Source: an uncultured Lentisphaerales bacterium | GTDB taxonomy: Bacteria > Verrucomicrobiota > Lentisphaeria > JABSQK01 > UBA12247 | Direction of reading: 5' to 3' | NCBI GenBank assembly: GCA_943788985.1 | Contig: CALSSJ010000012.1 | Span: forward strand, 96,001 to 160,000 | Length of the DNA stretch: 64,000 nt | In this document: piece by piece, positions 372 to 62,700 of the stretch | Position numbering within the stretch: the stretch's first letter is position 1 | Layout of the letters: every line of letters starts with the position of its first letter | Program-made: the position numbers and the translations under genes | Notes under the pieces: generated by a model | Databases searched by the model: none | The model's input: only the letters and a program-made list of their open reading frames with translations | What the model was told of the DNA's origin: nothing

Positions 372-1475
372 AACGGTTCCGAATGGCTTCGAGGATGGGG
401 GCGCTGGGCACATCTGGTTGCATGTGAACCGTACCGATGCCGTCGGGGGACGATCAGGCGATTCTTGCCTTGCTCATACTTCTTATCCTGCTGCATAGCC
501 GCCAGAATTTGCTCCGGGGCACCGTCGCTGCGTTTGCAGCGAGTAGGGAGCCCGAGAGCTGCGAACAGCGCATCCTGGCGGGGTGCGGAGTTCGCGACGC
601 GCCTCTGTGGCGTCGACCAGAATAGCGAGGTCGGCCGCCATGGCCATGCCAATTGCGATCGCTTCGCCATGGGTGTAGAGGCGGTAGCCGGTGATTTTCT
701 CCAGCGCGTGGCCGAAGGTGTGGCCGTAGTTCAGGATCGCTCGCAGTCCATTGTCGAACTCATCTTCCAGCACCACATCCGCCTTCAACTCGCAGCAACG
801 CTGAATCACCGCCATACAGGTTTCGGCGTCGCGAGCGAGCAACTGTGGCACGATGGTCTCGAGCTTTGCGAACAGCGCAGCGTCCAAAATTACGCCGTAC
901 TTCACGACTTCGGCCAGGCCGCAGCGCAGCTGGCGATCGTCCAAGGTGCGCAGAGTCAGCGGGTCGATCATCACCAGCTTGGGCTGATGAAAGGCGCCGA
1001 TGAGATTCTTGCCCTCGGGCAAATCGACTGCGGTCTTGCCACCGATGCTGCTATCCACATGCGCGACCAGGGAGGTCGACATCTGGATGTAGTCGATGCC
1101 GCGCATGTAGCTGGCTGCCAGAAAGCCAGCAGTATCCGCCCGACGACGCCGCCGCCGAGCGCGATCACGACTGACTTACGGTCTAGTCCTGCCTCGACCG
1201 CGGCGCTATACAGGCCACAGAGGGTGGAGTGGGTCTTTGATTCTTCGCCAGCTGGAAAAATAGTCTGTGTGACGGAGTCGGCGCCAGCTGCTTGGAGCAT
1301 GCGGGTTGCGGACTCCGCATAGAGCGGTGCAACGGTACTATCGGAGACAATGAAGCACGCTCGTCCGCTGACATGGGGGCCGAGTGCAGGGCATGCGGAC
1401 TCCGCAAAAAAACGTGTCCTGAATGACGATATCGTACGCGCGATTGTAAATCGGGATGGGAATGGTTCGCATCAT
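364..1475 (-). CDS. aroB: 3-dehydroquinate synthase, split by several frameshifts
   Basis: Fragments in different frames: GEESK, ALGGGVVG, TSLVAHVDSSIGGKTAVD...KNLIGAFHQP, GLAEVVKYG, LNYGHTFGHALE, HGEAIAIGM, MQQDKK. Confidence 0.92.
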
Positions 1476-1574
1476 AGCCTACTGTACATGGGAGCGGTAA
1501 GGGCAAACCATAGCAGGTTGCGGGTTCACGCCAATCACTTGAGCATGGATACGGGAATGAACGGGAGTAAGGAG

Positions 1575-2445
1575 ATGGCGCAGCGTTTGCTGTTGACGGG
1601 GGCTTCGGGTTTTTTTGGGATCTGCGTGCCGCGCGGCATGGGCCGATGCGTACACGATCATTCCGCTTTGTTCGCGGCGTACGCTGAGTCGGCCGGGGCT
1701 GCTGCCGTGTGATATCACCGACTATGGTGAGGTGAAGGCGGTGCTGGCCGAGCACCGGCCAGACTGCGTGGTGCATCTGGCTGCGATTCGCGATGCTAAT
1801 CTGTGCCAGAAGCAGCCGCTTGCGGCGGCGCGGGGTGAACACACAGGCGACGGGGGATCTCGCCGGACTTTGCGCAGATCGCCATCTTCCGTTTGTATTT
1901 ACCTCGACGGATCTGGTCTTTGACGGTCGCGAGGCGCCGTATTCGGAGGCGGACAGTGTGAATCCGCTGAGTGCGTACGGCGAGCAGAAGGCGCTGGCGG
2001 AAGAGCTGGTGCGGGCACGGTGGCCAGCGGCTGTGATCGCCAGATTGCCGTTGCTGTTTGGGCCGGTAGGGGAGGGGACAGAGAATTACGCGGCCTCGTT
2101 CCTCGCGGCGTTGGGAGCGGGACAACCGCAGCGCCTTTTTGTGGACGAGTTTCGTACGCCACTATCTGGCACAGATGCCGCGGATGGGGTGGCGCATTGC
2201 GCTCGAAAGTGGCCACGCGGGACTACTGCATCTCGGTGGGGGCTGAGCGGGTGTCGCGCTATGAATTTGGCCAGGCAATCTGCCGGGCGGCAGGAGTTGC
2301 GGACTCCGCATTGGAGCCGATCCACCAGGTCGATTTGACGATGGCTGCACCTCGGCCGCAGGATGTCTCGCTGTCGAGTGAGTTGGCAGGAGCGCTTGGT
2401 TTCGAGCCTCGGGCGCTGGCCGCGGCTCTGCAGGACCTGGCATGA
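1575..2445 (+). CDS. dTDP-4-dehydrorhamnose reductase (RmlD/RfbD)-like SDR oxidoreductase, frameshifted
   Basis: LLLTGASGF(F)G, VVHLAA, STDLVFDG...PYSE...PLSAYGEQK, LFVDEFRTP and APRPQDVSL spread over several frames. Confidence 0.85.
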
Positions 2446-2899: not shown

Positions 2900-3630
2900 G
2901 CTAGGGCGTGGGCGAGGCCATGAATTCCGGTGTCGAGCGAGAAGAAGTTCTCGTGGCCCTGTTCGCGCAGCCAGAGCGTGAGATTGCGGCTGCGAATGCC
3001 TTTGGCACAGGCGAGCAGGAAGGGCCGATCAGCGGGGAGCTGCAGGTAGATGTCGGGCTCGGACATGGGCAGGTTGGGGACTGCATGCACCCAGGCTGGA
3101 TCGCCGAGCCGCTCCATGGGCTCACGAATGTCGATCAGGGTGTAGGCGGCTAGCTGAGTGAGACCGAGATGGGCAGCATGCACCTGCCATGCATCGTGGG
3201 CGTACTGCTGATGACCACAGGCGCAGTTGACCCACTCAGCAGGGCCGTCGGCATAGAACTCTTTCTTCCAGATGGGAACATGCGCTTTGACCTCGTCGAT
3301 CACCCAGCGGCAGGCTGCAAAGGCTTCCTGGCGATGCGCGGCCAGGGCGCCAATCCAGATGGCAGCATCGCCAATGGCAAGCTCGCCGATGCGATGGATG
3401 GTGCGAACTCCGCAAAGCGAAAAGCGTTTGCTGGCTTCGGCCAGAATTCGGTCGCCTTCTGATTCGGCGAGTTTGTCGTATGCTTCGTAGGTGAGGGACA
3501 GCACCTCGCGGCCAAGGTGATTGTCGCGCACGCGCCCTTCGAAGGTGCTCAGGCCGCCAGCTGCGGAGTTCGCAAGGGCAGCGGATAACTCGCCGCATGG
3601 GATTGGCTCTCGAGTCAAGGAAAAGGGCAT
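2896..3630 (-). CDS. moaE: molybdopterin synthase catalytic subunit MoaE fused to a C-terminal rhodanese domain
   Basis: FEGRVRD, LTYEAY, HRIGEL, AAHRQEAF, KAHVPIWKKEFY (MoaE); then LIDIREPME...LLACAKGIRS...LDTGI (rhodanese). Confidence 0.9.
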   Translation of the reverse strand: MPFSLTREPIPCGELSAALANSAAGGLSTFEGRVRDNHLGREVLSLTYEAYDKLAESEGDRILAEASKRFSLCGVRTIHRIGELAIGDAAIWIGALAAHRQEAFAACRWVIDEVKAHVPIWKKEFYADGPAEWVNCACGHQQYAHDAWQVHAAHLGLTQLAAYTLIDIREPMERLGDPAWVHAVPNLPMSEPDIYLQLPADRPFLLACAKGIRSRNLTLWLREQGHENFFSLDTGIHGLAHALA

Positions 3631-3631: not shown

Positions 3632-3871
3632 TCAGCCTCCGGCCAATGGCGGGATCAGGGCGAGGGTGCAAGCTGCGGGTAGTGCGGAGTCTGCAGGCTG
3701 GTACTGGCCATTTACGGCAAAGCGCACACGATCCAACGGCAGTGAGAAGCCGTAGCGATGGCTGACTTCTTGATAGGCGGCGGCGGGCGTGGCGGCGCTG
3801 AGTTCGAGAGTTTCTTGATCTTTGCCAGTCTGCTCACGAAACAGGGCGAAGTAACGGATGGTGACGGTCAC
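3632..3871 (-). CDS. moaD: MoaD/ThiS-family sulfur carrier protein
   Basis: GTG start overlapping the MOSC stop; IRYFALFREQTG...FAVN...LALIPPLAGG with C-terminal GG. Confidence 0.9.
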   Translation of the reverse strand: MTVTIRYFALFREQTGKDQETLELSAATPAAAYQEVSHRYGFSLPLDRVRFAVNGQYQPADSALPAACTLALIPPLAGG

Positions 3872-4623: not shown

Positions 4624-5890
4624 TCAAAATTGGTCATAAGTTTGATCCTGAATGATTGCTGAAATGTGCCGCGCGTAGGCTTCCGGCTGCCAGGCTTGAC
4701 GGGCGAGGATGCGAAAGAGTGGCGTGCGCAGGACTGCCATGCGGCCGAATGAGTGGTCGATCGCGGAAATGCCGAACTGGATGTCGGCGTCGTTAATCTC
4801 GGTTTTGCGGAGTTCGCAAAGCGCGCGCCATCTGGCGGCACCGACAATGAGCGGCACTGTCAGGGCTACGGAGCGCAGGCCTTCGAAAAATTCCAGGCCG
4901 AAGTTTGCCGAACCGTAGAACTGCTGGGTTTGGAGCCTGACTTTTAGCAGGCGAACGATGCGTGCTGCGGACTCAGCAGGCGGCGCTGCTGCCGGCTCGC
5001 CGAGGAGCTGTAGATGACCAATGATTCCGTCGGGGTAGTCCTTGTCCAGTTCGCGCAGGTTTCCTTTGCCGAGGGTGAGCTTGCGCAGGGCGTTTGCATT
5101 GCGGATACGCGCCGGTAGACCGCCGCCAATGAGCGCTTCGTCACGCCGTAAGTAGGTGGTAAGTAGAGACATGTAACGCCATTTCTCGACGATGTTCTGC
5201 TTGCGCAGTCTGAGCTCAGGGACGTCGGTGAGGACGCGCGTGAAGAAGGTCTCGAGGACCTCGTCTCGGATTGGCTTATCGTTCAGAAAGATCGCGCCTA
5301 GACACTCGAGGCGCGAGGCGGCGAGGTTGAGCGCGATGGCTTTCTGGCGGAGCGGCACATCGGCGTCGAGGATGCCCGCGCTGAGTGCAGCCAAGACGAC
5401 ATGAACGGTGTCGGGCGTGAGGGTAGAGGCGTCTTCCTTGGAGGGCACGGGCAATTCAGGCATGCTGCGCAGGAGCTTTTCGGCGTCTTTGCGGGAGGCG
5501 CTGAGCAGCGGGCCGGTTTCTGCGACGACGGCCGGGCAGTCGGCGCGAGCGGAGAGGGCGTGCTGGCCGGATGCGAGCCGGGAAAACTGCAGGGGGTAGA
5601 GCCGACAGCCCAGCGGCTTGGCATCGGCCCCGTGCTTGGCGTGGATCCGGCAGTTGCCAGCGGCGGTGTCGAAGTAGGCGCAGGTGCCGTCCGGACGATG
5701 CGAGACAAAGGTCTTGGCCTTGGAACCGAAAGACGGGCTTCGCCGGTGGATGATCCCCGTCATCCCAGCGGAGAGCCCGCAGCTCGGTGGCCTCTTCCGC
5801 TGTGACTTCGACGTGCCAGTCCCTGCAGCACTTTCCACAGTCGGTGCAGTGGTAGTGCTGGTCGGCAGCAATGATTTTGGGGCTGGCCAT
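4624..5890 (-). CDS. YkgJ-family (CxxCxxCC) cysteine-cluster protein, frameshifted near the N-terminus
   Basis: CTDCGKCC in ORF 5456..5890, continued by C.YFD....CRIH..HG...KPLGCRLYP and DCP in ORF 4624..5871. Confidence 0.8.
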
Positions 5891-7894: not shown

Positions 7895-8004
7895 CAGGAT
7901 TGGTCCGATTGCGGTGTATGAACGTTGCTTCGGGACTGTGTTGCTGCGCTCTCAAAGCGCAAGCGCTGCGGAGCCTGTCCCACCAAAGCGTCAGGTTGCG
8001 GACG

Positions 8005-8032
8005 TTGACGGCAATCGTTCGGAGCCTATAGT
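8005..8032 (+). promoter_or_regulatory. sigma70-like promoter of the lacI-type gene, probably leaderless
   Basis: TTGACG (8005-8010), 16 nt spacer, TATAGT (8027-8032); ATG at 8039. Confidence 0.6.
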
Positions 8033-8038
8033 GTTACT

Positions 8039-9094: not shown

Positions 9095-9116
9095 GGAGCG
9101 GGTTCCATTAGTTGTG

Positions 9117-11537: not shown

Positions 11538-11546
11538 GAATTTGTC

Positions 11547-12188: not shown

Positions 12189-12252
12189 CACCGCGTCATC
12201 TCAATCGGCTGACAGCACTGCATCAATACAATTTTAGAATTGGATAGAAATC

Positions 12253-12891: not shown

Positions 12892-12902
12892 AGGACTCAA
12901 CC

Positions 12903-13142
12903 ATGCCGCGAGCTGCCATGCTAAGTGGTATCGCCGTGCTGTTCCTCTCAAGCTGTACGACCACACCCGTGGCTGACCAGAGCACGCCGGAACCGAGGCG
13001 CAGATATGATTTCTGTGCGTCTGGCACCGAATTGCGCGCGAAATATCGGCGGTGTGACGCAATCCCGCCGGGAGACGTTTATCACTATCTTTGCCGCGCC
13101 TATGGAGAACTCCATGAGCGCGGACGACTTGCACTTTCTTGA
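12903..13142 (+). pseudogene. possible truncated lipoprotein remnant
   Basis: AAGGA RBS, MPRAAMLSGIAVLFLSSC lipobox-like start, early stop. Confidence 0.3.
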
Positions 13143-14826: not shown

Positions 14827-16346
14827 ATGATGAACATGACCCTCGGAAACATGCTAAAACTCTTGGCCCGCGACGATCCTGGCGACGAGTGCGTTTGGGG
14901 CACCGGCGGCCACGAAAGAGACCAAACGGCCCAATATTGTGCTGATTCTGGCTGATGATTGCGCGAAGAAGGCGCTGAGTTGCTATGGCAATACTGATAT
15001 TCAAACGCCGGGACTGGATCGGCTGGCCAACGAGGGGATGCGCTTCGAACACGCGCTGACGCCGAATTCGTTCTGCACGCCAGCCCGGGCAGCGGTGCTG
15101 ACCGGAAAATACTCGCACAAGAATGGGCTGACCCATTTGAACCGGCCCTTCGATGGTTCACAGCAGACGTTTCCCAAGCTGCTGCAGGCAGCGGGATACG
15201 AGACGTCGATTTTTGGCAAGTGGCATCTGCTGACGCAGCCGACGGGGTTTGATCATTACTGCGTGATGAAGATGCAGGGGATGGTGACCAATCCCATCGT
15301 CTTTGAACCGCAGCACGAATGGGTGGTGTGGGGCAAGAACACCCGCAAGACCTACAACAACGGCGGCCGAACACTGACGGGCTACAACAATGATGCCATT
15401 ACGACGGAGGCGCTCGCCTGGCTGCGCGAGAAGCGAGACACCGAAAAGCCGTTCTGCCTGCTGCTGCATCCCAAACCGCCTCACGAGCCCTACCAGCCCC
15501 CAAAGAAGTACGCGGATTTCCTGAAGGATGTGACGATTCCCGAGCCAGCTACCTTGCTGGATGACCACAAGGGCCGGACTCCGGAGGCCATCCGTGACAA
15601 GATGTCCGCCAACCGTTTGGTGCTGAAGCAGGTCTTTCAGCCGCTGCGCAAGAAGCTGGAGAAGGAGAACCCGCAGATCACGGAGGGGGAGTTGACGCGG
15701 GCGATCTATCAGCACTACATCAAGGGCTATTATCGGCTGGTGAAGTCGGTAGATGACAATGTTGGGCCGGGTGCTCGACTATCTGGCGGAGAGCGGGCTT
15801 GAGCAGAATACGCTGGTGATCTACACGTCGGATCAGGGGTTTGCGCTGGGGGAACACGGCTTCTACAACAAGCAGTGGATGTATGAGGCGTCGCTTCACC
15901 AGCCGCTGCTGGTGCGCTATCCGGGCGTGGTTAAGCCCGGGACGGTGCATGATTCGATGGTGAACCATGTCGACCTGGCTCCGACGTTGCTGGCGGTAGC
16001 CGGGCTGCCGATTCCGCAGGACATGCAGGGATATTCGCTGAAGCCCATCCTGGAAGACAAGGCTGAGAAGGTGCGCGATGCCTCCTATTACCACTTCTAC
16101 AACCATGGCGAGCGACTGCCGGAGATGATCGGCGTGCGGACGGAACGCTATAAGCTGATTCACTACCCGGGCATGAAGGGCACCTACCAGTGGGAGCTGT
16201 TCGACCTCAAGAATGATCCAGACGAAATGAAGAATCTCTACACCAATCCTGAGTACCAGGCGGTGAAGGCGCAAATGACTCGGGAGTTGCAGACGTTGAT
16301 CAAGGACCTGGATGACCCGGTTGAAGCGCCGGAATTGGTCCAATAG
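14827..16346 (+). CDS. secreted sulfatase (Cys-type), frameshifted
   Basis: RPNIVLILADD, TPGLDRLA, CTPARAAVLTGK, GKWHL, YTSDQG..LGEHG, DLAPTLL, WELFDLKNDPDEM. Frameshifts near 14865 and 15765. Confidence 0.9.
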
Positions 16347-19539: not shown

Positions 19540-20981
19540 TGATGACGAAGTGCTTGTGGGGCGCGGCATTGATCCTGGCTGGTGTGCTCAGCAGTGCTGC
19601 GGAGTCCGCAGCGCCAGCCAAGCCCAATATTGTCATCATCCTCGCCGATGACCTGGGCTACGGAGATTGCAGCTACAACAATCCGGACTCGAAGATTCAC
19701 ACACCGCACATTGACCGGCTGGCAAAAGAGGGGCTACGCTTCAGCGATGCCCATTCTGCTGCCGCTACCTGCACGCCCTCGCGGTATGGTCTGCTCACTG
19801 GCATTAATCCCGCCAGGACCGGGGTGAGAAACACGCTGCTGAAAAAGGGCAAGCCCATCATCGACGAGCAGGAGACCACGATCGCGGCCCTGCTGAAACG
19901 CCAGGGCTACTCCACCCAGATGGTAGGCAAGTGGCATCTGGGCTTCGACATGGAGATGTCAGGAAAGAGACCGGAGTTCGATTTTTCCCGACCGCTGACC
20001 GGCGGGCCGCTGGATCGCGGATTCGATGCGTTCTTCGGCATTCATTCATCCCCGGGCTCCCAGCCGTATTTCTATATCGACGGTCGCGCTCCTGTTGCGG
20101 CACCGACCAAGATGAGCTCTGGTTCCTCTGGCCGGCAGGGCAAGAAGACTTCTTGGGTCAAGGGGAAAATAGCCCCCGGCTATGAGCATGAGGCGGTTGC
20201 TCCCCACCTCTGTGACAAAGCGGTAGAGATGATTCACGACCATGCCGCAGCGCCGAAAGGCAAGCCGCTGTTTCTCTATTATGCGTTCAGCTCCCCCCAC
20301 GCTCCCTGGCTGCCCAGCCAAGAATTTATCGGGAAAAGCGGCGTAGGAATCTACGGGGATTTCGTGGTGCAGCTTGATCATGAAGTCGGCCGGATTCAGC
20401 AGGCGCTCCGAGATACGGGTCTGGACCAGGATACCCTTCTTATCTTCACCAGCGACAACGGCCCGAGTTCGCATGCCGCCCAGGATAGTGAAGGGGCCGG
20501 GCATGCCGTTGCAGGCGTCTTTCGCGGGGGGAAAGCCTTCGCCTATGAGGGCGGGCATCGTGTGCCGTTCATCGCCACCTGGCCTGGCAGCATCCCAGCC
20601 GGGAGCGTGACGGAAAGCACCATTAATTTGACGGATGTTTTCGCGACACTGGCAGACCTGCTGCAGCTCGATGGCCCGCACGCCTGTCCCAGCATCACCG
20701 GTGACAGTCACAGTTTCCTGGCCGCTTTGCTCGAGCCCGGAAAGCGCGCGCCCCGTCCGCCCATGGTGAATACGCTGGACTGCATCCGCATCGACGATTG
20801 GAAGCTGGTGCACCCCGGGAGAGGGCGAGGCCCCAGCGAAACCAATGTCTCGAAGTTCAAGCTGTTCAATCTCGCCAATGACCTGGCCGAAGAACAGGAT
20901 CTAGCGGCGCAGAATCCGGAGAAGCTGAAGCGCCTCTATCGGCACTACAAGGGGTTCATAGGCGAGCGGAAGCTGAAGTAA
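19539..20981 (+). CDS. secreted arylsulfatase (Cys-type)
   Basis: Signal peptide, KPNIVIILADDLGYGD, CTPSRYGLLTG, GKWHLG, FTSDNG, YEGGHRVPFI. Confidence 0.93.
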   Translation: MMTKCLWGAALILAGVLSSAAESAAPAKPNIVIILADDLGYGDCSYNNPDSKIHTPHIDRLAKEGLRFSDAHSAAATCTPSRYGLLTGINPARTGVRNTLLKKGKPIIDEQETTIAALLKRQGYSTQMVGKWHLGFDMEMSGKRPEFDFSRPLTGGPLDRGFDAFFGIHSSPGSQPYFYIDGRAPVAAPTKMSSGSSGRQGKKTSWVKGKIAPGYEHEAVAPHLCDKAVEMIHDHAAAPKGKPLFLYYAFSSPHAPWLPSQEFIGKSGVGIYGDFVVQLDHEVGRIQQALRDTGLDQDTLLIFTSDNGPSSHAAQDSEGAGHAVAGVFRGGKAFAYEGGHRVPFIATWPGSIPAGSVTESTINLTDVFATLADLLQLDGPHACPSITGDSHSFLAALLEPGKRAPRPPMVNTLDCIRIDDWKLVHPGRGRGPSETNVSKFKLFNLANDLAEEQDLAAQNPEKLKRLYRHYKGFIGERKLK

Positions 20982-26202: not shown

Positions 26203-27149
26203 TCAGGCGTTGCCAGCCTCTTGGAAGCGCACGCGTGGGTCGAGCAACCCGTAGGCGAGATCGGCGATGAGGTTGCAGATCACGATGAAGGTTCCGTAGA
26301 CGATGACGGTGCCGATTACCAGCGTGAAGTCGCGGTTCAGGGCACTTTCGACGAACTTGCTGCCCAGCCCGGGAATGCCGAAGATCATTTCAACGACAAG
26401 TGAGCCAGTGGTGACGGAGGCGATCGGCTGGCCCGAGATAGCTGACTACTGGCATCAGGGCACCACGCAGAGCATGGCGCAGAATCACGATGCGCTCGGG
26501 CAAGCCCTTGGCGCGGGCTGTGCGGATGTAATCCTGCTGCAGGACTTCGAGCATGCCAGCGCGGGCCAGGCGTGCGATGCGGGCTGCGAATGGGAAGGCC
26601 AAGGTGAGCGCGGGTAGAATCAGGTAGACCGGCGCGCGAATGCCCTCATAGCCGGTCAGTGGTAGCCAGTCGAGCTTCATGGCAAACAGAATCTGCAGCA
26701 TCGGGCCAATCACAAAGGTTGGCAGGCTGATCCCGATGACGGCCAAGAGCATGGCACCTACATCGCGCGCGGAGTTTTGGTGCAAGGCGGCGATGGTTCC
26801 CAGAATCAGGCCCATTCCCAGCGCCAGGCAGAGTGCCAAGCCGCCGAGCAACATCGAGGCGGGGAGAGCACGAGCAATAATCTCGGTGACCGAATGGCCC
26901 TTGTGCTTGATCGATGGGCCCAGATCACCTTTTGCGAGGTCCGCAAGAAAGCAGCCGTATTGCACGGCTAGCGGACGGTCGAGCCGGTACTTTGCTTCAA
27001 GTGCAGCCATGACCTGGGGATCGACATTGCGGTCGCCTGAGAAAGGGTTGCCAGGCGCGAAGCGGATCAGAAAGAACGAGATGGTGATGAGGACCAGCAG
27101 CACGACCGGTGGCCTGGAGTAAGCGAACCATTGGCATAGCGAGCCACAT
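26203..27149 (-). CDS. oppB: oligopeptide ABC transporter permease OppB, frameshifted
   Basis: ITISFFLIRFAPGNPF, GDLGPS, ARLARAGMLEVLQQDYIRTARAKGL, IFGIPGLG, DLAYGLLDPRVR. Confidence 0.9.
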
Positions 27150-28763
27150 CAGCGCTCCAGCCAGATGTACTTGAGCGGGTGATAGTCCCGCACATTGTCG
27201 TACCAGCCCAGAACTTGCTCGGCGAGCAGGCCTTGATTGACGTAGATGTAGAGCGGCAGGATAGGCATCTCCTGTTCCACTAGAATGCGCTCCATATCCT
27301 GAAACAGCGCGAAGCGAGTCGCTTTGTCTGGTTCATTAGCGGCCTGCTGCAGTAGCTCGTCGTAGGGCTTGCTGGACCAGCCGGTGCGATTGTTGCCGCC
27401 GTCGGAAACCCACATGTCGAAGAATGTATTTGGATCGTTGTAGTCGCCGATCCAGCTTGAGCGCGCGATCTGGTAATTTAGCTGATTCATGTCGCTTAGA
27501 AACACCTTCCACTCGGAGTTATGGAGGGAGATCTGCGCGCCCAAGTTGTTCTTCCATTGCTGGGATAGGGCCTCTGCCACGGCCTTGTGCCCCTCGCTGG
27601 TATTGTAAAGCAGTTCGACCTCTGGGAAGGGGTTTGCCGTTCTGGCCATAGCCGGCCTCGGCCAACAGGGCCACGGCTTTCTCTGGATCGTAGGCGAGCC
27701 CGGCTACGTGTTTGTAGCCGCCTGCGGGGGGGCAGAACCAGGTGGCTGGCTCTTGGCCGCCCTTGAGAATATGGGAGGTGATCAACTCGCGATTGGTCGC
27801 CAAGGCAAAGGCTTGACGCACGCGGGCGTCGTTGAACGGCGGCTTGGTGCAGTTGAATCGGTAGAAGTAGACTCCTAGGTATGGCATGACGTAGTAATCC
27901 GGGTCGCGTTGCGCCTCCTCGATTCTTGCTAACGGGAGCGCTGGCAGCCAGTGCAACTGCTTCTTTTTGAAGAGGTTAAAGGCGACGTTGAGCTCGGTTT
28001 GCGGACTGACTGTAATCTTCTTGAGAGTGACGTGCTTGCGGTCCCAGTAGTGAGGATTTCCGGTCAGCTCGATCCGCTGCTCCGGGAGCCACTCGCTGAG
28101 GACGAATGGGCCGTTGTTGACGATGTTGTCCTTCCGCACCCAGCGATCGCCATGTTGCTTTATTACGGCCGTTGGTGTTGGAAACAGGGTGTGGAAGGCC
28201 ACCAAGTCCAGGAAGTATGGGCACGGGCGTTCCAGCGTGGACAACGAAGGTCCGCGCGTCTGGGGCTGTGGCACCGACTTCAGCGAACTCCGCAATATCG
28301 CCACGGTTAAGGCCTCGGCGTTCTTGACCGGGTAAAGCTGGTAGGCGTAGGCTGCAGCGGTAGTTGGGGTGAGGACGCGCTCCCAGGAGGCCATGAAATC
28401 CTGGCTGGTCACGGGCGAGCCGTCTGACCACTTTGCGTTCGCTCGCAGGTTGAAGGTGTAGCTGAGTTGATCAGCGGAGATGCTCCAGGACGCGGCGACA
28501 CCAGGGCGCGGCTCAAGCGTTTCTGGGTCCAGCGAGATCAGGCCTTCGAACAGCGCATCGACAATCCGTGATTCGGGAACGCCGGTGATGAGTGCTGGAT
28601 CCAGTGTCTCTGGCTCCGTTCCGTTGTTGAAGACGAAGTGCTGCTCGGTCTCCCTCCAGGCATCGCCTTCTGGAAGCAAGCGTGCTTTCCAGGCTGGCAA
28701 TTCGGCTGCCGCTGCGGAGTTCGCAATCCACAACATGATCAAGATCATCACGAGCTGTCGCAT
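27149..28763 (-). CDS. oppA: oligopeptide ABC transporter substrate-binding protein OppA, frameshifted
   Basis: NGTEPETLDP, LFEGL, AKWSDG.PVT..DF, NGPF.L.EW, PFNDARVRQA, WIGDYNDP. Confidence 0.9.
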
Positions 28764-41043: not shown

Positions 41044-43464
41044 TCAGAAACGCGTGATTTTGCGCCAGAACGCGGGGGCTCGGGTCGAGCCATCCTTGGT
41101 GTCGACATGCGTGAGCCGCTTTAGAGAGCGGAGCCGGATGACGCTCTTGGTGAGCTTTGGGGGCAACGCCAAGCGTCTGAGTGTGGTGACCGCGACTAGC
41201 GAGCCGACGTCCTGAATGCCGGTGCAGTCCGAGATGAATAGCTCGGATAGCGGCAACTTCAGCAGCGGCTCCAGGGAGATAATGGCGGTGCCTCTGAGGC
41301 TCAGGCGAGTGAGCGGCAGGGCTACGAGTGGTTGAAGATCTACTACTGGGGTCTTATCAAGGGACAGCACTTCGAGCGGCATGCCAACGAGGGGCGTAAG
41401 ATCTGCGATAAGAGTTTCGGAGGCGGCGAGCTGGGTAAGCTGCATGCCGTTAAGCGGGCCAAGGTCGCTGACTAGTGAGCGTGAAATACTAAGGGCGGAC
41501 AGTTGCAGCTTTCTCAGTGGCGTGAGATCAGTGATCGGACAATCGTCGGCATACAGCTCGGTTAGCGCAGTGGCTTCAGCCAACGGTGCAAGGCTCCTGA
41601 TACCACAGTTCTGAATGATAAGCCGCTGGAGCTTCGGGCCTGGAAGCTGGGCAAGATCTGTGAGCTTGGTGCAGCCTGTGAGGTTGGCTTCTTCGAGGTC
41701 AGCTCCGGATAGTCCGCTGAGATCGCTCACGCCAGCGTTTGTCATCACGAGCTTGGCGATTCGGAGCTGCTTGAGCGGTGTAATGTCTATCAGCTCTTTC
41801 AGGTCGATGAGCTCGATGTGGACGACATTCATGCCAATCTTGAAGAACTGAACCGGCATTTTTAGTCCGGGATTCAGGGTTTCGAGGTCTGCGGAGATCT
41901 TGCGCATCTTTTGGACCATCGGATCACTGTTCAGGGTTTCTGCGATCTCGCGATCGACTTTTACCCGGTCAATTTTATTGCGGTCGGCTTCTTTGAGGAG
42001 GTGGGCCTCGAGTGCGTTCGCTGCGCGAATCTGGCGTTGGAGCTCAGCGCGGTACTCGTACTCATCCGCACCGGAGTAGTTGAAGGCTGCGTTGAAATAC
42101 TGCTTGGCTGCATCGGGTTGGAGGTGCAGCATGCTCAGTCTGCCGAGCTCGAAGAAGGCGAGGCTGGGGTTGTCATCGTGCTCCAAGGCGTAGTCCATGA
42201 CATTCTCGAGAATGCGGAGTGCATCGCCCCAGATCTTGGCGCGATCTGCGGCGCGGTCCCAGAGCATATGCTCGACTCTTGGCTTGGGAGCATTTCGTAA
42301 GCGCTCGATTTCTTCCTGGGACTGCTCCAGCTGCGCGGCCTGCATCTCTCGCTCGTCATTGGCAGCTTCTCGCTCGTCGCCGAAGGTGATGGCATCACGC
42401 ACGTTCATCGACACAGCACCGATGGTGACAATGACGGTGATCCCTAGCAGGATGAGCAGCACGCGCTGACGCATCTGATAGCGAAACAACTCGCTCATCG
42501 ATGGCGGCAGAATGGGGTCGGCGTCGCCACGAGTGAAGAGGTAGCCTTCGACTTGGCGCCGTAGTTCGGCGATACTTTGGCGGCCATCAATCGGTTGCGC
42601 GAGGGCCTGAAGTGCAGCCTGGACGAGACGACCGGGGATCTGCTTGTCAGCGGAAAAGTGGCGGTTCATCTCGACGGATTGCCGCGCCGACTGGGTGGCT
42701 TCCATCGCCAACGCGCGGTCGGCTGCGAAAAGATTGGGATCCGCGATCTGGCCATGGGCGGTGGCTTCGGTGATTTCGGCGATGGTTTCGCCAGGAATAG
42801 CCGGCCGGAGCGCGAGAATATGGTAGAGGATAGCGCCGAGGCTGTAGATGTCTGAGCTCGGGGCGGCAGGGCAGGGGGCGAGGCGTTCCGGAGCCAGGCA
42901 GCGAGCCATCTGCGGAGTTTTTGCGGAGTCCGCAACGACAGGGAGTTGGGCTTCGGCCGCGGTCGCGCCCCAATACTCAGTGACCATCATTTCACCGCTT
43001 GGGCGGACGAAGATGCAGCCGGGGTGGAGGCGACCGTGAAGGACACCAGCTTCATGCGTGGCAGCGATGGCGTCACAGACTTGGAGAAAACCATGCAAAA
43101 GCTGGCGGGACGAGGGGGCCTTTTCGGCATCGGCCTGGCCGTTAGCGACATCGTCGAGAACCTGACTGAGCGGGATGCCAACTGGCGGCTGGAACACGAG
43201 AAACGGTCGATCAGCGTTGGTCGATCTGGTGAGGACGGTCTGGATGGCGCAGTGAGCGATGGGCTCGATCCTAGTGGAAGCGGCAAAGAAGTTTTCCGCG
43301 AACTCGGCGGAGGGGACAAGGACTTGGACGTCGCGCTGTGTTCGGGTATCTTTTGCGGCAAAGATTTGGGTGGGCCCGCACTGGCATGCTTCGCCATTCG
43401 TCTCGAAATGCTCGCCGTAGCGTGGTTCTTGTGCCGTGTCTGCCATACGTCTCTCCTTGATCAT
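41044..43464 (-). CDS. pseudokinase-TM-TPR-LRR protein
   Basis: Degenerate kinase (HGRLHP instead of HRDLKP, no DFG, APE and SDIYSLG kept); TM VLLILLGITVIVTIGAV; LRR repeats DL.PL....L..L. Confidence 0.85.
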   Translation of the reverse strand: MIKERRMADTAQEPRYGEHFETNGEACQCGPTQIFAAKDTRTQRDVQVLVPSAEFAENFFAASTRIEPIAHCAIQTVLTRSTNADRPFLVFQPPVGIPLSQVLDDVANGQADAEKAPSSRQLLHGFLQVCDAIAATHEAGVLHGRLHPGCIFVRPSGEMMVTEYWGATAAEAQLPVVADSAKTPQMARCLAPERLAPCPAAPSSDIYSLGAILYHILALRPAIPGETIAEITEATAHGQIADPNLFAADRALAMEATQSARQSVEMNRHFSADKQIPGRLVQAALQALAQPIDGRQSIAELRRQVEGYLFTRGDADPILPPSMSELFRYQMRQRVLLILLGITVIVTIGAVSMNVRDAITFGDEREAANDEREMQAAQLEQSQEEIERLRNAPKPRVEHMLWDRAADRAKIWGDALRILENVMDYALEHDDNPSLAFFELGRLSMLHLQPDAAKQYFNAAFNYSGADEYEYRAELQRQIRAANALEAHLLKEADRNKIDRVKVDREIAETLNSDPMVQKMRKISADLETLNPGLKMPVQFFKIGMNVVHIELIDLKELIDITPLKQLRIAKLVMTNAGVSDLSGLSGADLEEANLTGCTKLTDLAQLPGPKLQRLIIQNCGIRSLAPLAEATALTELYADDCPITDLTPLRKLQLSALSISRSLVSDLGPLNGMQLTQLAASETLIADLTPLVGMPLEVLSLDKTPVVDLQPLVALPLTRLSLRGTAIISLEPLLKLPLSELFISDCTGIQDVGSLVAVTTLRRLALPPKLTKSVIRLRSLKRLTHVDTKDGSTRAPAFWRKITRF

Positions 43465-46276: not shown

Positions 46277-46282
46277 AGGTAC

Positions 46283-49624: not shown

Positions 49625-50140
49625 GAGCTGTCACTCTGGTGCGGAATCCGCAGTGGGTGGTGGGCGTCCTTTGTGGGCATAGACGCTAAATTCATGCTTG
49701 AGTAGTTTCAGGTTGCGCTGGAGTTGTAGATTGCCGACCAATTTTGGGATGTTCGCTGGGGCCGTGTTCCAATCAGGTGCGGGCTAGTCCCAGCCAAGAT
49801 TGGCTGGGTTTTACCCACTACCAAAGCAGCAGGTGGCCGAAAAGCTTGGCGCTCAGCGAGATGATGCTCTGCTGAAAGCCAAAGGCCTCGTAGTTCAGCA
49901 CGTCGTACATGTGGAGGCGGTGATACAGGCTAGCCGCGATCAGGTCAAAAACTGCACCCGTCAAGGTAAAGATTGTGCCCATTGCGTGGTTGTCGGCGGT
50001 CCGTGTACTGTGGAGCAAATCAGCAAAAGAGGAATCTACAGCGCAGTTGCGGATAGTCGAGGCTGGTGTGGCGGCTTGCGTCCAGCGAATGCTGGGGCAT
50101 TATGCCTCTGTCGTGAAACGCACCTGTATCATGGAACGCT

Positions 50141-51256
50141 ATGTTGCCGATAAACATACCCAGTAGATTGATTGAGGCCCACCGAGGTGAACTTGATCGC
50201 GCGCTCAAGCGGGTTCTGGACTCTGGATGGCTACTGCTGGGCCCCGAAACCGAGGCATTTGAGACCGAATTTGCAGCGTTTTGCGGAGTTCGCAATACGG
50301 TCAGCTGTGCCTGCGGAACCGATGCATTGGAGCTGATGCTGCGCGCGCTGGAGATTGGCCCGGGAGATGAGGTGATCACCGCAGCGAATGCGGGCTTCTA
50401 CAGTAGTACGGCTATTCTTCGCTGTGGCGCGCAGCCTGTATACGCCGATGTCGAAGCCAACGCCTTGTGTCTGTCTGCGGAGAGTGTGGCAGATGCAATT
50501 ACGGAGCGGACCTGCGCTGTTATCGCCACGCACCTGTATGGCCAGCTTGCGGACATCGCAGCGCTTGAGAAGGTCTGCGCTGTACGGTCGGTTCCGCTGC
50601 TGGAGGACTGCGCACAAGCGCACGGAGCAAGTCGCGATGGACGCCTAGCCGGTTCCTTCGGGAGAATGGCGGCATTCAGCTTTTACCCCACTAAGAATTT
50701 GGGCGCATTGGGGGATGCCGGAGCAGTCGTGACCTCTGACGATGAGCTGGCGAAACGACTGCGCGCCTTGCGGCAGTACGGCTGGGAGCAGCGATATGTA
50801 AGCAGTCAGCCGGGGATGAATAGCCGGATGGACGAGTGTCAAGCGGCGGCCCTGCGGGTGTTGCTGCCAGCGCTTCCGGCGCGCAACGAACGACGGAAGG
50901 CAATTCGTGAGGCGGTGCTTGAGGCTGGTTCAGGAGGGAGCTGGCGGGCGCCAGGGAGCGTGGGAGAGGATCATGTCGCCCATTTGTGCATTCTACAGAC
51001 GGAGCAGCGTGAGGCTTTGGGGATGGCGCTTGCCGAGCATGAGATCAGCACGGCAATTCATTACCCGATGGCGGACTGGCAGCAGCCCGCATTAGCCGGC
51101 CGCGAAGACCAGCCACGGCTTGAGGTTACGGAGGCAGCGTGCAGGACGGTTCTGACCGTGCCATGCTTTCCGGAGATGACGGACGAGGAGACAGAGACCC
51201 TATGTCGGGCACTGCGGAGCGTTGCAGGTGAATTCCAGAAAGGAGTAGGCGTATGA
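50141..51256 (+). CDS. DegT/DnrJ/EryC1/StrS-family aminotransferase (FdtB-like)
   Basis: [45 protein letters not shown]. Confidence 0.93.
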
Positions 51257-54265: not shown

Positions 54266-55303
54266 GTGCATTATTTTTCTATTTGGCATTTCATCGGGCT
54301 GACATTTCTGTTGCTTGTGGCGGTTGGCTGCAGCGAGCAGGTTGAGCGGCGCACGTATCAGGAAATTCATGTGGCTGTATCGGCACCGAGCGTGACTGAC
54401 CCTCCGGTAGGGCAGGCGCCCGTAGTTGCGAAGTCCGCAGAACTGGTTTGGGCACTCCCGCCAGGATGGCAGGAGAAGGCCAGCGCCCAATCGATGCGCC
54501 TGGTGACGTTTAGCAGTGGTGCCGATACAGATGGCTCGATCGTCGTGCTGCCCGGAGACGTGGGCGGTGAATTCGCCAATGTCCAGCGCTGGGCCGGTCA
54601 GGTCTCGGTGGAGATGAGCGATGACGAGCTCGTAACCTTCATCGCCGAGCAAGAGCGGCTCACTAGCGCTGGGGGCTTTCCCGTGCTATTGATTGACTTC
54701 TCGCGCGCAGTCGAAGATGATTCGCCTTCGATGCTGGTGGCGATCGTGGAGCTGCCACAGAAGCGAGCTTTCGTGAAGCTGATGGGAGCGGCCACAGTGC
54801 TGCGTGCGGAGTCCGCAAACTTTCGGGCGCTCTGCGCGAGCCTTGCGTCCCACATGCCGAGTGCTGAGGAGCCAGCCGAGAAAGGGACGATTGCGTGGGA
54901 CGTTCCGGAGGGCTGGTCTATTGAGGCCGCGCAGGGCATGCGCTTAGCGACCCTTCGTCCAGCGGCAGACCCCGATGGGCTGTGCACCATTATCGCGCTA
55001 GGAGGCGCGGGTGGGGGGCTGGAGCAGAATGTGGTTCGGTGGGCGCGACAGTTGAAAGCAGAGCTTGAGAAGCCAGCCGAGTTTATTGCGCGACAACCAA
55101 AACTGGATGCGCGCAGTGGCCCGCCAGTGCTGCTGGTTGATCTGCTCGAGCTGCAGCCCAAACAAGACGGACCGTCCATGCTGATAGGCGTCTGGACGCT
55201 GGAAGAGCAGACGATCTTTGTCAAGTTCAGCGGTTCGGTCTCGTTTCTGACAAGAAATCGGCAGGCGTTTCGCGCGCTCTGCCGGTCATTGAGAGTGGAG
55301 TAG
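54266..55303 (+). CDS. lipoprotein with two tandem copies of an uncharacterised domain
   Basis: Lipobox VAVGC; repeat W.(L/V)P.GW...MRL.T...GG...NV.RWA.Q...PVLL.D...SML....FVK..G...F..LC.SL occurs twice. Confidence 0.8.
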   Translation: MHYFSIWHFIGLTFLLLVAVGCSEQVERRTYQEIHVAVSAPSVTDPPVGQAPVVAKSAELVWALPPGWQEKASAQSMRLVTFSSGADTDGSIVVLPGDVGGEFANVQRWAGQVSVEMSDDELVTFIAEQERLTSAGGFPVLLIDFSRAVEDDSPSMLVAIVELPQKRAFVKLMGAATVLRAESANFRALCASLASHMPSAEEPAEKGTIAWDVPEGWSIEAAQGMRLATLRPAADPDGLCTIIALGGAGGGLEQNVVRWARQLKAELEKPAEFIARQPKLDARSGPPVLLVDLLELQPKQDGPSMLIGVWTLEEQTIFVKFSGSVSFLTRNRQAFRALCRSLRVE

Positions 55304-59282: not shown

Positions 59283-59645
59283 ATGGAGAGTGCGCGCATG
59301 CCCCTGGGGAAACCTCAATTGGCCTTGAGCGCAGTCGTCCTGACAACCGTCGCTACGCTTGCGCTGGTCCAGCTTTCGACCGAAATTCTGGAATCGTATG
59401 TTTTGGGTATCTTCGTCGCTACGCCGTTGATTTGCGGTGCCCCGTTTGTCCTGAGCTACAACTGGCAACATGAGCCGGTTTTTGGCGAGTCCATCTTCAT
59501 CCGTACAATGATGGAGCCAGAGCCGTATTGGGGCTGGCTGCGCGATGAGCTGATTCACTTGATCCACAAAATGGTGTTGAACCACATCAAGCACGCGTTG
59601 GAGACGAAAGCCAGCTCGGTGCTCTCACGGAGCTGGATTGGTTAG
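59283..59645 (+). pseudogene. probable internally deleted remnant of a membrane/SRPBCC-like protein
   Basis: N-terminal TM (Y..GIFVATP) joined directly to a C-terminal-type YW.W..D..IH.IH..VL.HIK segment. Confidence 0.35.
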
Positions 59646-59724
59646 GCTACTGCTGCGGCGGTTGTATTCACCACAATGACAGTTACTGACACCGTACTTG
59701 TTCGCTTATTAACCGGAGGCTTGA

Positions 59725-62700
59725 ATGTTGTTGCCTACTTTTTCCAGTAGGTTCTTGCTCTGTGTGTCGCTGTTGAGCCTGTCCTTATGGAGTGCGGCGG
59801 AAACGCTTCGTTGTGACCGCTTTGTCTTGGCTGATGTCGTCGGTGTCTTTGAGGTTCAGCACCTGGCGGGGCCGGATCAGGTACTGCGAACTTCGCAACT
59901 GCTGGAACGAAGGGCAGGGGAGGGGAGGCTGCGCGTCAGTGGCGAGGGGTTTCAGATCACTTTCTCGGTTGAAGCGCACACAAACTACCTGGTTCTGCGC
60001 CTCGAAAAGGTGGTGGAGCCAGCTCCCGGGACGCTGATGACGTTCGCCTTTCGACTGGCAGCGAACAGCGAGTACGTGCTGACCCGGCTGGACTACATGA
60101 CTGTGCCAACGGATGGCGAGCGGGGAATGTCCTGGCCCTGGATCTGGGGCCGAAATACGGCGAACCCGCTGGGGGCGTTCGCGATTCAGGCTCCGCGGAA
60201 TGACCAGGAATTCGATGAAAACCTACTCCAGATGTGGGTGGAAGATGGGCTGCCGCATCCGACCGGGGAGTGGACAATCGAGCGCGCCCGGAGTTGGCTG
60301 AGCCACTGGCAGCAGCGCTTTGCGGACCAGAGTTGCATCGTGCTTGGCGCCAAAACGCGGGGGGAACTGGAGCAGGTGACTGCCTGGGCCGATTCGCTGA
60401 AGATGAAACGGGTTTATCTGCACACCGATACCTGGCGTGGGGAATACTGGCCATACCAACACTCGTATCTGCGGGTGAATCCTGAGGTGTTCCCGGGTGG
60501 CGAGAAGGATTTGAATGACTACACCATCTCGCTGCGGGAGAAGGGCATGGGGTTTGCCGTGCACAGCACCTGCATGTCTATTGGCCGAAACGATCCGGAC
60601 TATGTACGAGACGGGGTCGATCCGCGCCTGTCGCGCTGGGTTCGAGGGACGTTGACGGAGGCCGTCGGGCAGGAGGCGAAGACGCTCTATTTTTGCCCGG
60701 CACCGGGGGTGCGCCATCCGCGCATGGTTCGCCACGTTTGGGCGGGGCCAGGGACAATGCCGTCTTGGATGGACCTTAAGATGTTTTTGGTGGGGGACGA
60801 ACTGGTGGAGGCCGAGACGGTCGACCATTCAAGGCAGGACGTATGGGTGCTGAAGGGCTGCCGCCGCGGGGCATGGGGCAAGGACGCGAGGTCGCACCCG
60901 GCGGGCACCAAATGCGAGGGCATGGTCAGACCGTATCGTCAGGTCTTTGTTCCAGATCCGGATTCTACGCTCTTCGTGGAGACGATTCAGCGGTGGGCCG
61001 AATTCTGTACGCGGAACAGTGTAGATCATCTTGAGTGCGATGCGTTGGAGGATCACGCAGACAAGCCCTGGGGCGTAGGCAAGTTCAGCTGGCTGCTCAG
61101 TTCTGCACTGAGTTTGCCTAGCACCAGCAACACCTCGAGCGGGAGCCCTCTGCCATTCCAGGTGGAGTACTGGTTCCGGGGGAGTCGGCAGGTGGTTGCC
61201 AATCATGCTCGGGGGGGAGTTGCGGGTGGCGCTAGCCTTCCGCTGTATGCACACAGCGAGATCCGGCAGGCGACCGGGCCCCTACGAGATTCTTTATAAG
61301 CCGGGGGAGATGGTCGGGCGCGGCAGTAGCAGCTTCAATGTGTCCTCTCCGTGGCCGATGTTTGGCGTCACGCCAGAAATTCTGTCCACTCAGGGGCTGG
61401 TGCCGATGGTCGAGGACTTGCTGCGCGATTGGCGAAGCGCGCTCCAGACGATCAGCCCAGGCTGTCGCAAGACGCTGGGTAAGGAATACGGCGTGTTTCG
61501 CAGCCCAATCGGGAAGGGCGGAAATCAGCCGGGGACCGATGTCCTTTTTCGGCCTGAGAGTGTGGAGGGACAAAGCCAGATTACCCCGCTGCGGTTGCTG
61601 GGCCGGAGTTCAGGCGAGTTGAATTGGGGATATGGCCAGGAGTTCGGCCCGATCGTGCCACGGCAATACCTGCGCGTGGGCGAATCGCTCCAACTGGCCA
61701 ACCCCTGGCAGGCACAGGAGCCAGAGTTTTTGATTCGGGTGATGGGAGAGTTGGCAGGGACCAATGACGAGTGGCAAGCTCCGGAGACCGCTCAGACCGA
61801 GGATTCTATTCTGGCGGCCTATGAGGCGGGGACTACGAACGATTTCAGCGCGCACCCGCTGCACAGCGCCCGCCATATCTGGGCGGCTGAAGCTGTAGAG
61901 AATGGTGCGGCAATGCCCGGTGTGGTGCAGCTGCGGCGCAGCTTCAGGGTCAATCTGCGCAAGTTCAAAGGAGCCCGCCTGTATCTCCAGCTGGATGATG
62001 AGGCCGTTGCCTATGTGAATGGCAAGAAGGTGTTCTCGGGCGGCAGCTTCGACCAACTGCAGTTTGTTGAAGTCCGCAATTTTCGCCACGGGCCGAACGA
62101 GGTTTTGATCAAGGCCACGAACGCCGGGGGGGCCGGTAGTGTGGCTGCAGCGCTGCACATTCAAGAAGGAAGCGCCACGCGTGACCTGGCGAGTGATGGT
62201 TCCTGGCAGGCCAGAATTGGCGACGGCGCCTGGGGGGCCGTCGCAGATCTGGGGGCGTACGGTGCCAGTGTCTGGCCTAAGGTTGCCCCGCAACCCGCAG
62301 TCGTCTATCGGGACTTGATGCCCGCGCTAGGAACGATCGAGCCTGGAGAAGGCCATGAGCTGACGTTGGTTGACGATGCCCTGCAGATCAGCTATCGCAA
62401 CGAGAGCAGCGCCCTGACCATGCATCTTAAGGATCGCCCTGCCTGGGCAATGTCCTTAGACATGAGCGCGGCGCGCGGCGTTGGCTGCACCGTGACTGGC
62501 GATGGCAGTGGGGCGGTCTTGGTGATTACCATTGAGGGGCATGGGTACAGGGACTACGTGATTCCGATCGATTTTACCGGCACTCGTGAGCTGCAGATTC
62601 CGACTGGTGAGGTCGCCTGGGCTATGCCCGAGTGGAGCTGGCGCGGGCACGGCAGGTTTCGTTATGACCGGATTCGCAAGGTGCGGGTTGGCTTCGGTAC

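Follow-up and report, generated by a model that had tools for sequence, protein, structure and literature searches.

A palindromic word of the HIP1/uptake-sequence kind, iterated throughout the genome of an uncultured Lentisphaerales bacterium

What does a word of 13 bases signify when it recurs in unrelated genes, in all reading frames, far above chance? The question is raised by a stretch of 64,000 nucleotides from an uncultured Lentisphaerales bacterium (hereafter the window; positions 96,001 to 160,000 of contig CALSSJ010000012.1, assembly GCA_943788985.1; 56–61% GC), in which the near-palindrome TGCGRANTYCGCA is repeated many times. A prediction made from the letters of the window alone (hereafter the original prediction) had listed 20 exact copies, with about 0.02 expected by chance. 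Both figures hold: exact matching returns these 20 copies and no other, and the mean over 100 shuffles that preserve dinucleotides is 0.02 (maximum, 1). With one mismatch or fewer allowed, there are 30 matches, consisting of the 20 exact copies and 10 one-mismatch copies (eight had been reported), and the shuffles give 1.25 for all matches of this type. In the whole assembly (G000; 4,582,059 bases in 48 contigs, 83.6% complete), the word occurs 898 times on 47 of the 48 contigs, and together with its overlapping sub-words it supplies the commonest 10-, 11-, 13-, and 15-mers. The feature is real and very strong, being a lineage-specific, genome-wide iterated palindrome of the kind to which the highly iterated palindrome HIP1 and the uptake sequences belong. 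It is a new instance of that kind in another phylum and not a wholly new system, such that the "new chromosomal signal system" of the original prediction was an overstatement.

Anatomy of the word and its coding context

The full word, (T)TGCGRASTYCGCA(A), is near-palindromic and 13–15 bases long, its two inverted half-sites, TGCGRA, being separated by a G/C centre. Since 849 of 896 copies have G or C at the central position, S describes it better than N. The extension of some copies to a flanking T and A had been noted before and is borne out by a T at −1 in 586 and an A at +13 in 581 of 896 copies (65% each), with both present in 380 of 850. Beyond these flanks, no position is conserved out to ±20, which rules out the mobile-element remnant that the original prediction had named as an alternative. 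The commonest forms are TGCGGAGTTCGCA (424 sites), TGCGGAGTCCGCA (239), TGCGAAGTTCGCA (109), and TGCGGACTTCGCA (78); a further 100 sites read TGCGGAGATCGCA, with the half-site TGCGAT, and fall outside the pattern first described. Overall, TGCG-N5-CGCA is found at 1,749 sites in G000. Constraint is highest in the arms, above all at the GC of positions 2–3 and 11–12. Transitions are the commonest changes among one-off variants, and perfect copies far exceed one-off copies in number. The degeneracy is symmetric, in that R at position 5 is mirrored by Y at position 9 (half-site TGCGRA), as would suit a protein with two-fold symmetry that reads double-stranded DNA.

In the hetero form, GGAGTT is preferred over GGACTT by 424:78. 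Because the same preference is found outside called genes (65:7), it is a property of the DNA. There is no strong strand or sense bias. In the main coding phase, sense orientation stands at 130 versus 86, and the lack of any sense-strand preference beyond this rules out an RNA hairpin with a G-U pair. Relative to GC skew, the asymmetric form is oriented 166 against 126, about what skew alone predicts, and a replication-oriented signal is thereby ruled out.

Genes were called with a home-made Markov caller, which returned 3,158 genes (80.7% of the genome), fewer than are present, since the assembly contains indel errors. Called genes hold 779 of the copies, and 119 lie outside them. The density is 0.21 per kb in genes versus 0.13–0.22 per kb in spacers of up to 1 kb. 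Copies are evenly placed along genes, and divergent, tandem, and convergent spacers have similar densities, ruling out a promoter or terminator role. The three phases are used by 537, 134, and 108 copies, and the leading one (69%) reads x-GCG-RAS-TYC-GCA, which encodes Ala-x-x-Ala on either strand. The earlier statement that all three frames are used is thus correct, except that the use is uneven, at 4–5:1 in favor of Ala-x-x-Ala. For comparison, HIP1 is most often read as Ala-Ile-Ala.

The enrichment was compared with two codon-aware null models genome-wide. When synonymous codons were shuffled within genes such that all proteins were kept (30 replicates), 15.2 ± 4.1 copies (maximum, 22) were found in coding sequences, versus 783 observed; when codon order was shuffled, 1.5 copies were expected. 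The enrichment is about 50-fold over the former and about 500-fold over the latter, and with copies in all three phases, the DNA-level and frame-independent nature of the signal that the original prediction had claimed is supported. Given the tenfold gap between the two nulls, the proteome itself is shaped by the word. The tetrapeptide AEFA occurs 193 times versus 31.7 expected (6-fold), ANSA 130 versus 26, and AESA 193 versus 50. Among the 878 tetrapeptides of the form A-(E/D/K/N)-(F/S)-A, 553 (63%) use the exact 12-nt core, where 9.8 would be expected from codon usage; a preceding T is present in 528 of these 553, and 153 more of the 878 are one base away from the core. Such 2- to 6-fold enrichment of several tetrapeptides bears on models of protein evolution and on the detection of horizontally acquired DNA in these genomes.

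Distribution among genomes and along the chromosome

The word was counted in 41 relatives from the class and in a 301-genome sample of the phylum, with the word read backwards, itself palindromic, as a control. Between 18 and 532 copies are present in 17 of approximately 120 other genomes of the class, and these rich genomes belong to seven families (f3, f8, f9 with its genus g18, f12, f15, f16, and f18). Four of the remaining class genomes have 7–13 copies and the rest have 0–6. In other classes of the phylum (approximately 200 genomes) there are at most four copies per genome, and the backwards control occurs 0–6 times per genome, with 11 in one (G315). The pattern is patchy. The order that includes G000 has rich families (f1 and f3) and poor ones (f2, f4, and f5) side by side, and within family f9, genus g18 is rich, g15 is intermediate, and g21 is empty. 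Patchiness that extends to the genera of one family makes a search by phylogenetic profiling for a gene that tracks the word realistic.

The word is also enriched at low GC content. Genome G017 has 188 copies versus 0.06 expected per genome, and an 82-kb sample of it has 34% GC. In G028 (three contigs), copies lie across all contigs, and its 46 15-mer sites are spread chromosome-wide. Together with the approximately 900 copies that G000 has on 47 of its 48 contigs, this distribution is at odds with the positional role, of the type known from matS, SBS, or NBS, that the original prediction had entertained. Rich genomes have their own dialects. The share of copies flanked by both T and A ranges from 6 to 71% (133 of 188 in G017, 46 of 95 in G028, 61 of 291 in G032, 70 of 532 in G245, and 10 of 156 in G283). 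Of the sites listed for G032, 26 of 29 are perfect palindromes, and G028 favors GGACTT (16) over GGAGTT (8), the opposite of G000. Because the specificity is the same at 58% and 34% GC and yet has lineage dialects, we infer a symmetric reader. In the literature, the word and its sub-words were found only as unrelated primers (14 papers), with no publication of the word itself, and searches for Lentisphaerae or Victivallales together with iterated palindromes or uptake sequences returned nothing relevant.

Comparisons with homologs indicate how copies are gained and lost. In the DegT-family and MoaE proteins of the window, all three motif-encoded stretches align without gaps to solved homologs. 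The four copies in glyQS of G000 all align gap-free with the orthologs of G005 and G001, and G004 has a three-residue insert at one of the four. These findings rule out the footprint of a 15-bp in-frame insertion. All four copies stand opposite unrelated codons in the orthologs of G005, G001, and G004, and one of them was created by a D-to-A replacement together with two synonymous changes, within a stretch (R-D-D-F-A-D) that is otherwise conserved. Residues have been changed to accommodate the word, a point that the original prediction had raised as a check. The Mur ligase gene of G000 has five copies and one GATC-type variant, none of which is in common with the seven other rich genomes examined, and G017 has a copy of its own three codons away from one in G000. 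In total, none of 10 G000 sites in glyQS and the Mur ligase gene is common to rich genomes of other families. In the 22 low-copy genomes of the set (20 poor and 2 intermediate), this Mur ligase gene has no copy. At a finer scale, one Mur ligase site in genus g3 occurs in perfect form in G013 and with A as its centre base in G011, and is one base off in G005 and two bases off in G002; all four species encode V-A-E-S-A, and the site is present in two of the four. Taken together, the gap-free alignments and the lineage-specific positions indicate that copies arise in place by substitution, both synonymous and amino-acid-changing, separately in each lineage.

Along the chromosome, the density of copies rises with GC content, the Spearman coefficient in 10-kb windows being 0.51 and the lowest and highest GC quintiles having 0.8 and 3.9 copies per 10 kb. 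It also rises with the GC3 of genes, 3.4-fold between the lowest and highest quintiles (0.096 versus 0.329 per kb), where the mononucleotide expectation is flat. Neighboring copies are often 15–50 bases apart. Among the contigs of 100 kb or longer (18 in number, and short for this purpose), no periodicity was seen, and the only clear positive signal is a weak 5-kb autocorrelation (z = 2.5).

Accessory DNA is depleted. The first 80 kb of contig C12 (C12:1-80000; L151-L154), ahead of the window, has no copy versus approximately 16 expected (Poisson, about 1e-7). Its approximately 43 genes, all on one strand and at 52–57% GC, include GH29 fucosidases, GH95, GH20, a rhamnosidase-GH20 fusion, many sulfatases, and one DDE transposase, and the region is a large island for the degradation of sulfated fucose-rich glycans. 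A porphyranase/sulfatase cluster at 5.9–19.5 kb of the window likewise lacks copies. The sole copy-free contig, C9 (25.9 kb; approximately five copies expected), carries a further RecC gene, whose match to the family model is better than that of the RecC gene on C10, and this contig may be mis-binned or recently acquired.

For viruses, two scans of 2.9 million viral contigs returned 60 and 36 loci. These are single sites explicable by chance, except for one contig (L123/L191) and possibly L182. The exceptional 28-kb contig (G321; L123 and L147) has 12 copies, or 0.43 per kb, which is above any chromosome sampled. It is identified as a Mu-like phage from its genes for head and portal proteins, for transposition proteins resembling MuA and MuB, for a methyltransferase, and for a Gam-like end-protection protein, with two of the 12 copies inside the last of these genes. 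A 184-amino acid open reading frame (ORF) of the same contig (15831-16382) has four copies arranged as two pairs; the spacing is 18 bases within each pair and 294 bases between the pairs, an arrangement suggestive of an internal duplication.

A possible role in DNA exchange and the rival explanations

We tentatively favor the reading that the word tags self DNA in DNA exchange, that is, in the uptake of incoming DNA and/or its recombination. This reading ranks ahead of sites for a nucleoid-binding protein, and a repair-driven bias and a Chi-like self mark share the place after that. Point substitutions write the word into long-resident DNA, on either strand of genes and about as densely in spacers, and it fills most positions where the protein tolerates it. 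In the proposed mechanism, a putative sequence-specific, two-fold symmetric reader of double-stranded DNA would be present in rich lineages and lost or changed in poor ones. If word-bearing DNA were preferentially taken up or recombined, the word would spread by molecular drive, as proposed for uptake sequences and HIP1. In favor of this reading are the enrichment over both codon-aware nulls, the gain of copies by substitution at lineage-specific positions, the symmetric degeneracy, the dialects, the depletion of accessory DNA, the presence of dprA and PilM in G000, and the effect of HIP1 on transformation. A fuller version of this proposal is more doubtful. It envisages a methylation-independent self-DNA word system in the Planctomycetes-Verrucomicrobia-Chlamydiae group, in which a putative symmetric reader, present in some orders and families and lost in others, would favor TGCGRASTYCGCA-bearing DNA at uptake or recombination; the word would be driven into every tolerant position, including those of resident phages, and the specificity of the reader would drift into dialects. 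If this fuller version is correct, the word would be the first signal for uptake or recombination to come from outside Proteobacteria and cyanobacteria. The purpose and spread of HIP1 and of uptake sequences have been open for decades, and the debate rests on very few independent cases. The present case adds an independent phylum, a long word with symmetric degeneracy that points to a dimeric reader, the lack of a visible methyltransferase partner, and constancy at 34% and 58% GC.

Among known systems, the DNA uptake sequences (DUS) of Neisseriaceae and the uptake signal sequences (USS) of Pasteurellaceae are similar in that they occur on both strands, lie in genes with a frame preference, form dialects in related lineages, and have more perfect than one-off copies. 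DUS and USS are likewise short words with hundreds to thousands of copies and are rare in recently acquired DNA. The copies of the present word differ in being clustered and not even, and ComEC was not found in the incomplete G000.

Several observations weigh against a role in DNA exchange. DUS and USS are not palindromic, unlike this word, and natural transformation, for which no targeted search was made, is not known to have been reported for these bacteria. The spacing of copies is over-dispersed (coefficient of variation, 1.39), with an excess of gaps both below 1 kb and above 20 kb, and the density in the Mu-like phage is not predicted by a simple drift toward host composition. The search for a reader is also unfavorable, as no candidate among the families searched tracks the word. 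In G000 (83.6% complete), ComEC was found neither by its Pfam model nor by tblastn with the ComEC proteins of two relatives, and the competence-related genes found are dprA, at the edge of the window, and PilM. The original prediction had pointed to dprA; the gene is indeed there, and nothing ties it to the word. Within the 41-genome set, ComEC is present in 39 genomes, PilM in 38, and HHH_3 (mostly Tex-like proteins) in 31, each in rich and poor genomes alike, such that none of the three separates them. None of the candidates examined, namely methyltransferases, Vsr, ComEC, PilM, ParB_N, RecC, and HHH_3, tracks the abundance of the word. Likewise, the dimeric reader of the original prediction suits the symmetric degeneracy, and no such protein was found.

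One further candidate is an additional, long ComEC-like protein with a DUF4131 and a Competence domain (944–1214 amino acids), found in G005 (L142), G011 (L143), and G017 (L144). It adjoins a conserved protein of approximately 680 amino acids without a Pfam match, and the pair is 31–35% identical between families f3 and f8. The pair is present only in motif-rich genomes of these two families. As a required reader, the paralog is ruled out, since it was not found in the rich genomes G000, G025, G028, G034, and G032.

A close known counterpart is HIP1 (GCGATCGC) of cyanobacteria, together with the alternate HIPs. These are also GC-rich palindromic words that are hyper-abundant in genes and spacers, act at the DNA level, are restricted to lineages with exceptions, and have a debated function. 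The differences are that HIP1 is a strict octamer, whereas the present word has 13–15 bp with degenerate symmetric positions; that it belongs to another phylum and is present at approximately 0.2 per kb, with HIP1 being denser; and that no methyltransferase tracks it (in a G000 that is 83.6% complete), no periodicity was seen, and positions are not conserved between families. For HIP1, passages of Xu, Lawrence and Durand (2018; PMC5861425) argue for selection and a role in nucleoid or chromosome structure, with sites conserved beyond the neutral level and spaced periodically at 10–90 kb. Kamoku and Nielsen, in the portion of their account drawn on here, state that HIP1 raises transformation efficiency and suggest a Chi-like contribution, and a passage of PMC13756078 gives a correlation of HIP1 with pilus and competence genes.

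The rival that survives best, although we consider it rather unlikely, is that the copies are sites of a chromosome- or nucleoid-organizing protein, with a symmetric dimer binding all along the chromosome and selection keeping its sites. The symmetry of the site, its chromosome-wide copies in G028 and on 47 of 48 contigs in G000, the excess of perfect over one-off copies, and the role argued for HIP1 in the part of PMC5861425 cited above are all as this explanation would have them. In addition, ParB_N is present in none of the 11 motif-rich genomes and in 10 of 41 overall, so the class may organize its chromosomes differently. However, a need for spaced sites predicts neither that nearly all compatible peptide contexts are filled nor that copies are often 15–50 bases apart. 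The absence of any periodicity seen on contigs of 100 kb or more, the lack of positions common to rich lineages, the 80-kb island without copies, and the failure to find a candidate protein also speak against it. Among established systems of this type, matS/MatP, SBS/SlmA, NBS/Noc, and parS/ParB share with the word a palindromic site, in their case 12–16 bp and read by a dimer. Those systems have tens of sites in one chromosomal region, unlike the approximately 900 sites here. ParB_N itself is rejected as a reader on its distribution. The 10 matches to the ParB N-terminal domain are mostly weak and probably of plasmid or phage type, and a canonical ParABS system may be missing from much of the class.

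We consider it unlikely that a sequence-specific bias in repair or gene conversion produced the word. In the model that Elhai (2015; PMC4390886) lays out for HIP1, in the sections drawn on here, repair depends on methylation, and a cognate orphan methyltransferase for the inner part of the word accompanies its high frequency. Applied to the present case, a methyltransferase would mark the word, a mismatch-correcting nuclease would convert near-cognates to it, and the sites would have no function. This would agree with the near saturation of compatible contexts, the prevalence of transitions among one-off variants, the build-up in resident DNA and in a temperate Mu-like phage, and the lineage-specific positions that turn over. 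Known very-short-patch repair, on the other hand, shifts word frequencies by small factors and acts on sites of 4–6 bp, and the density in the phage is above that of any chromosome sampled. The enzymes that the model requires are not apparent either. No gene for Vsr (PF03852) or for methyltransferases of the PF01555 (N4/N6), PF02086 (Dam-type), or PF07669 (Eco57I-type) families was found in the 83.6% complete G000, and of the type I methylase genes only fragments are left. There is one complete C5 methyltransferase, beside an HNH nuclease as in an ordinary restriction system, and a fragment of a second. The complete gene belongs to locus L001 (C17:77721-81764), where two ORFs of 122 and 225 amino acids, which overlap, come after a methyltransferase of 383 amino acids. 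These ORFs share a repeated segment, and the second ends in an HNH-like motif; the locus is probably a type II restriction-modification system with a frameshifted or duplicated nuclease gene. It is ruled out as the reader, given that no homolog was found in any of the five rich f3 genomes, nor in G028 or G034. The link to methylation raised by the original prediction thus receives no support, as no methyltransferase tracks the word in G000 and its relatives.

A Chi-like or other self-protective mark seems no more probable than repair. Here, a nuclease or defense system would spare or repair word-bearing DNA, and both host and phage would be selected for the word. A frequency of about one copy per 5 kb, the enrichment of core DNA with depletion of accessory islands, and the presence of RecC in G000 all resemble the Chi sites of RecBCD/AddAB. 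The Mu-like phage contig, with its 12 copies in 28 kb and two of them in a Gam-like end-protection gene, would also fit. Known Chi sites, however, are 5–8 nt long, asymmetric, read as single strands, and oriented with replication, whereas this word is a palindrome whose weak orientation bias (166 versus 126) is about what skew predicts. RecC was found in 34 of 41 genomes regardless of the motif count, and it was not found in the rich G032; it is therefore rejected as a reader. A Chi-like contribution is nevertheless what Kamoku and Nielsen, in the portion cited above, suggest for HIP1.

That a protein motif, an RNA structure, codon usage, base composition, or the remnant or footprint of a mobile element explains the word is highly improbable, for although 69% of genic copies encode Ala-x-x-Ala, the copies number 783 versus 15 under the protein-keeping shuffle, occupy three frames, both strands, and equally dense spacers, show a sense excess of only 130 versus 86 in the main phase, have no conserved flanks and no insertions relative to homologs, and are enriched as the same word in G017. 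Repetitive extragenic palindromic (REP) sequences and bacterial interspersed mosaic elements (BIMEs), which are associated with RAYT transposases, are likewise highly repeated palindromic DNA. REPs are extragenic and longer, in contrast to a word that is mostly intragenic (779 of 898), and a search of G000 for the Y1 transposase family of RAYT (PF01797) gave no match.

Copies in the window and their surroundings

The original prediction had read the copies in the window as Ala-x-x-Ala, C-G-V-R, or L-R-x-x-Q within genes. This is correct for 16 copies in called genes (seven Ala-x-x-Ala, five L-R-x-x-Q, and four C-(G/E)-(V/L)-R); of the other four, three lie in frameshift-broken ORFs and one is intergenic. 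The broken-ORF copies are those at 1307..1319 and 1394..1406, both TGCGGACTCCGCA, and at 2298..2310, within an RmlD-like gene of the short-chain dehydrogenase/reductase type that is split by a frameshift. On the minus strand, moaE has two copies, at 3402..3414 (C-G-V-R, residues 73–76) and 3562..3574 (A-N-S-A, residues 19–22), and a gene for a 379-amino acid protein without a Pfam match has one at 4806..4818 (C-E-L-R). From 5897 to 19539, there is no exact copy; this stretch, with a LacI regulator, a porphyranase, an IclR regulator, and sulfatases, is the polysaccharide-utilization cluster mentioned above. The next copy is in a sulfatase gene (19598..19610; A-E-S-A).

In the middle of the window, a gene for a solute-binding protein (SBP_bac_5) has a copy at 28713..28725 (A-N-S-A), and the SNF2 helicase gene has two, at 29652..29664 (A-N-F-A) and 30649..30661 (L-R-S-S-Q). 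The helicase gene appears to be horizontally mobile, as a genome scan with it returned other phyla. A Wzy_C-like (O-antigen-ligase-like) gene has three copies, at 32365..32377 (C-G-V-R), 32663..32675 (L-R-S-P-Q), and 33383..33395 (L-R-S-S-Q), and a gene for a leucine-rich-repeat (LRR) protein has one with an A centre at 34701..34713 (L-R-N-S-Q). All seven sites from 28713 to 34701 are identical in metagenome contig L148, which at 99.6% identity is too closely related to inform on conservation. This near-identical contig was all that a metagenome scan for relatives of G000 returned. Relative to window positions 22590-40190, L148 has 42 substitutions and 31 single-base indels. The substitutions are clustered at 22.6–23.3 kb and 37.2–37.7 kb, with the appearance of recombination tracts. 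Among the 31 indels, 29 are extra bases on the window side, mostly at 22.6–28.3 kb; therefore, the broken ORFs of the window, namely aroB (483-1106, without its N-terminus), the RmlD-like gene (1793-2445, split), and a sulfatase gene (14939-16346, split), are probably assembly errors.

In the last third of the window, a DegT-family aminotransferase gene has a copy at 50282..50294 (C-G-V-R, residues 39–42), within one of the stretches that are gap-free relative to solved homologs. Two genes without Pfam matches account for three more, one for a 345-amino acid protein with copies at 54427..54439 (A-K-S-A) and 54805..54817 (A-E-S-A), and one for a 524-amino acid protein with a copy at 59885..59897 (L-R-T-S-Q).

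The one-mismatch copies are located at 584..596 (TGCGGAGTTCGCG), 3683..3695, 4966..4978, 16006..16018, 26933..26945, 28282..28294, 32349..32361 (16 bases ahead of the exact copy at 32365), 32928..32940, 50548..50560, and 62909..62921. The match at 16006, in the sulfatase island, may be due to chance, since 1.25 matches with one mismatch or fewer are expected per window. The one at 50548 (TGCGGACATCGCA, a form with 42 sites genome-wide) has the alternative half-site TGCGAT.

The intergenic copy, also with an A centre, is at 49640..49652. The gene that ends 16 bases before it (48464-49624) encodes a transglutaminase-like core fused to a YccV-like "hemimethylated DNA-binding" domain. Finally, the copy at 42922..42934 (A-D-S-A) lies on the minus strand in an LRR/kinase gene, in a region (41044-47095) where four Ser/Thr protein kinase genes are adjacent, one of them fused to LRRs and another to a response-regulator receiver domain.

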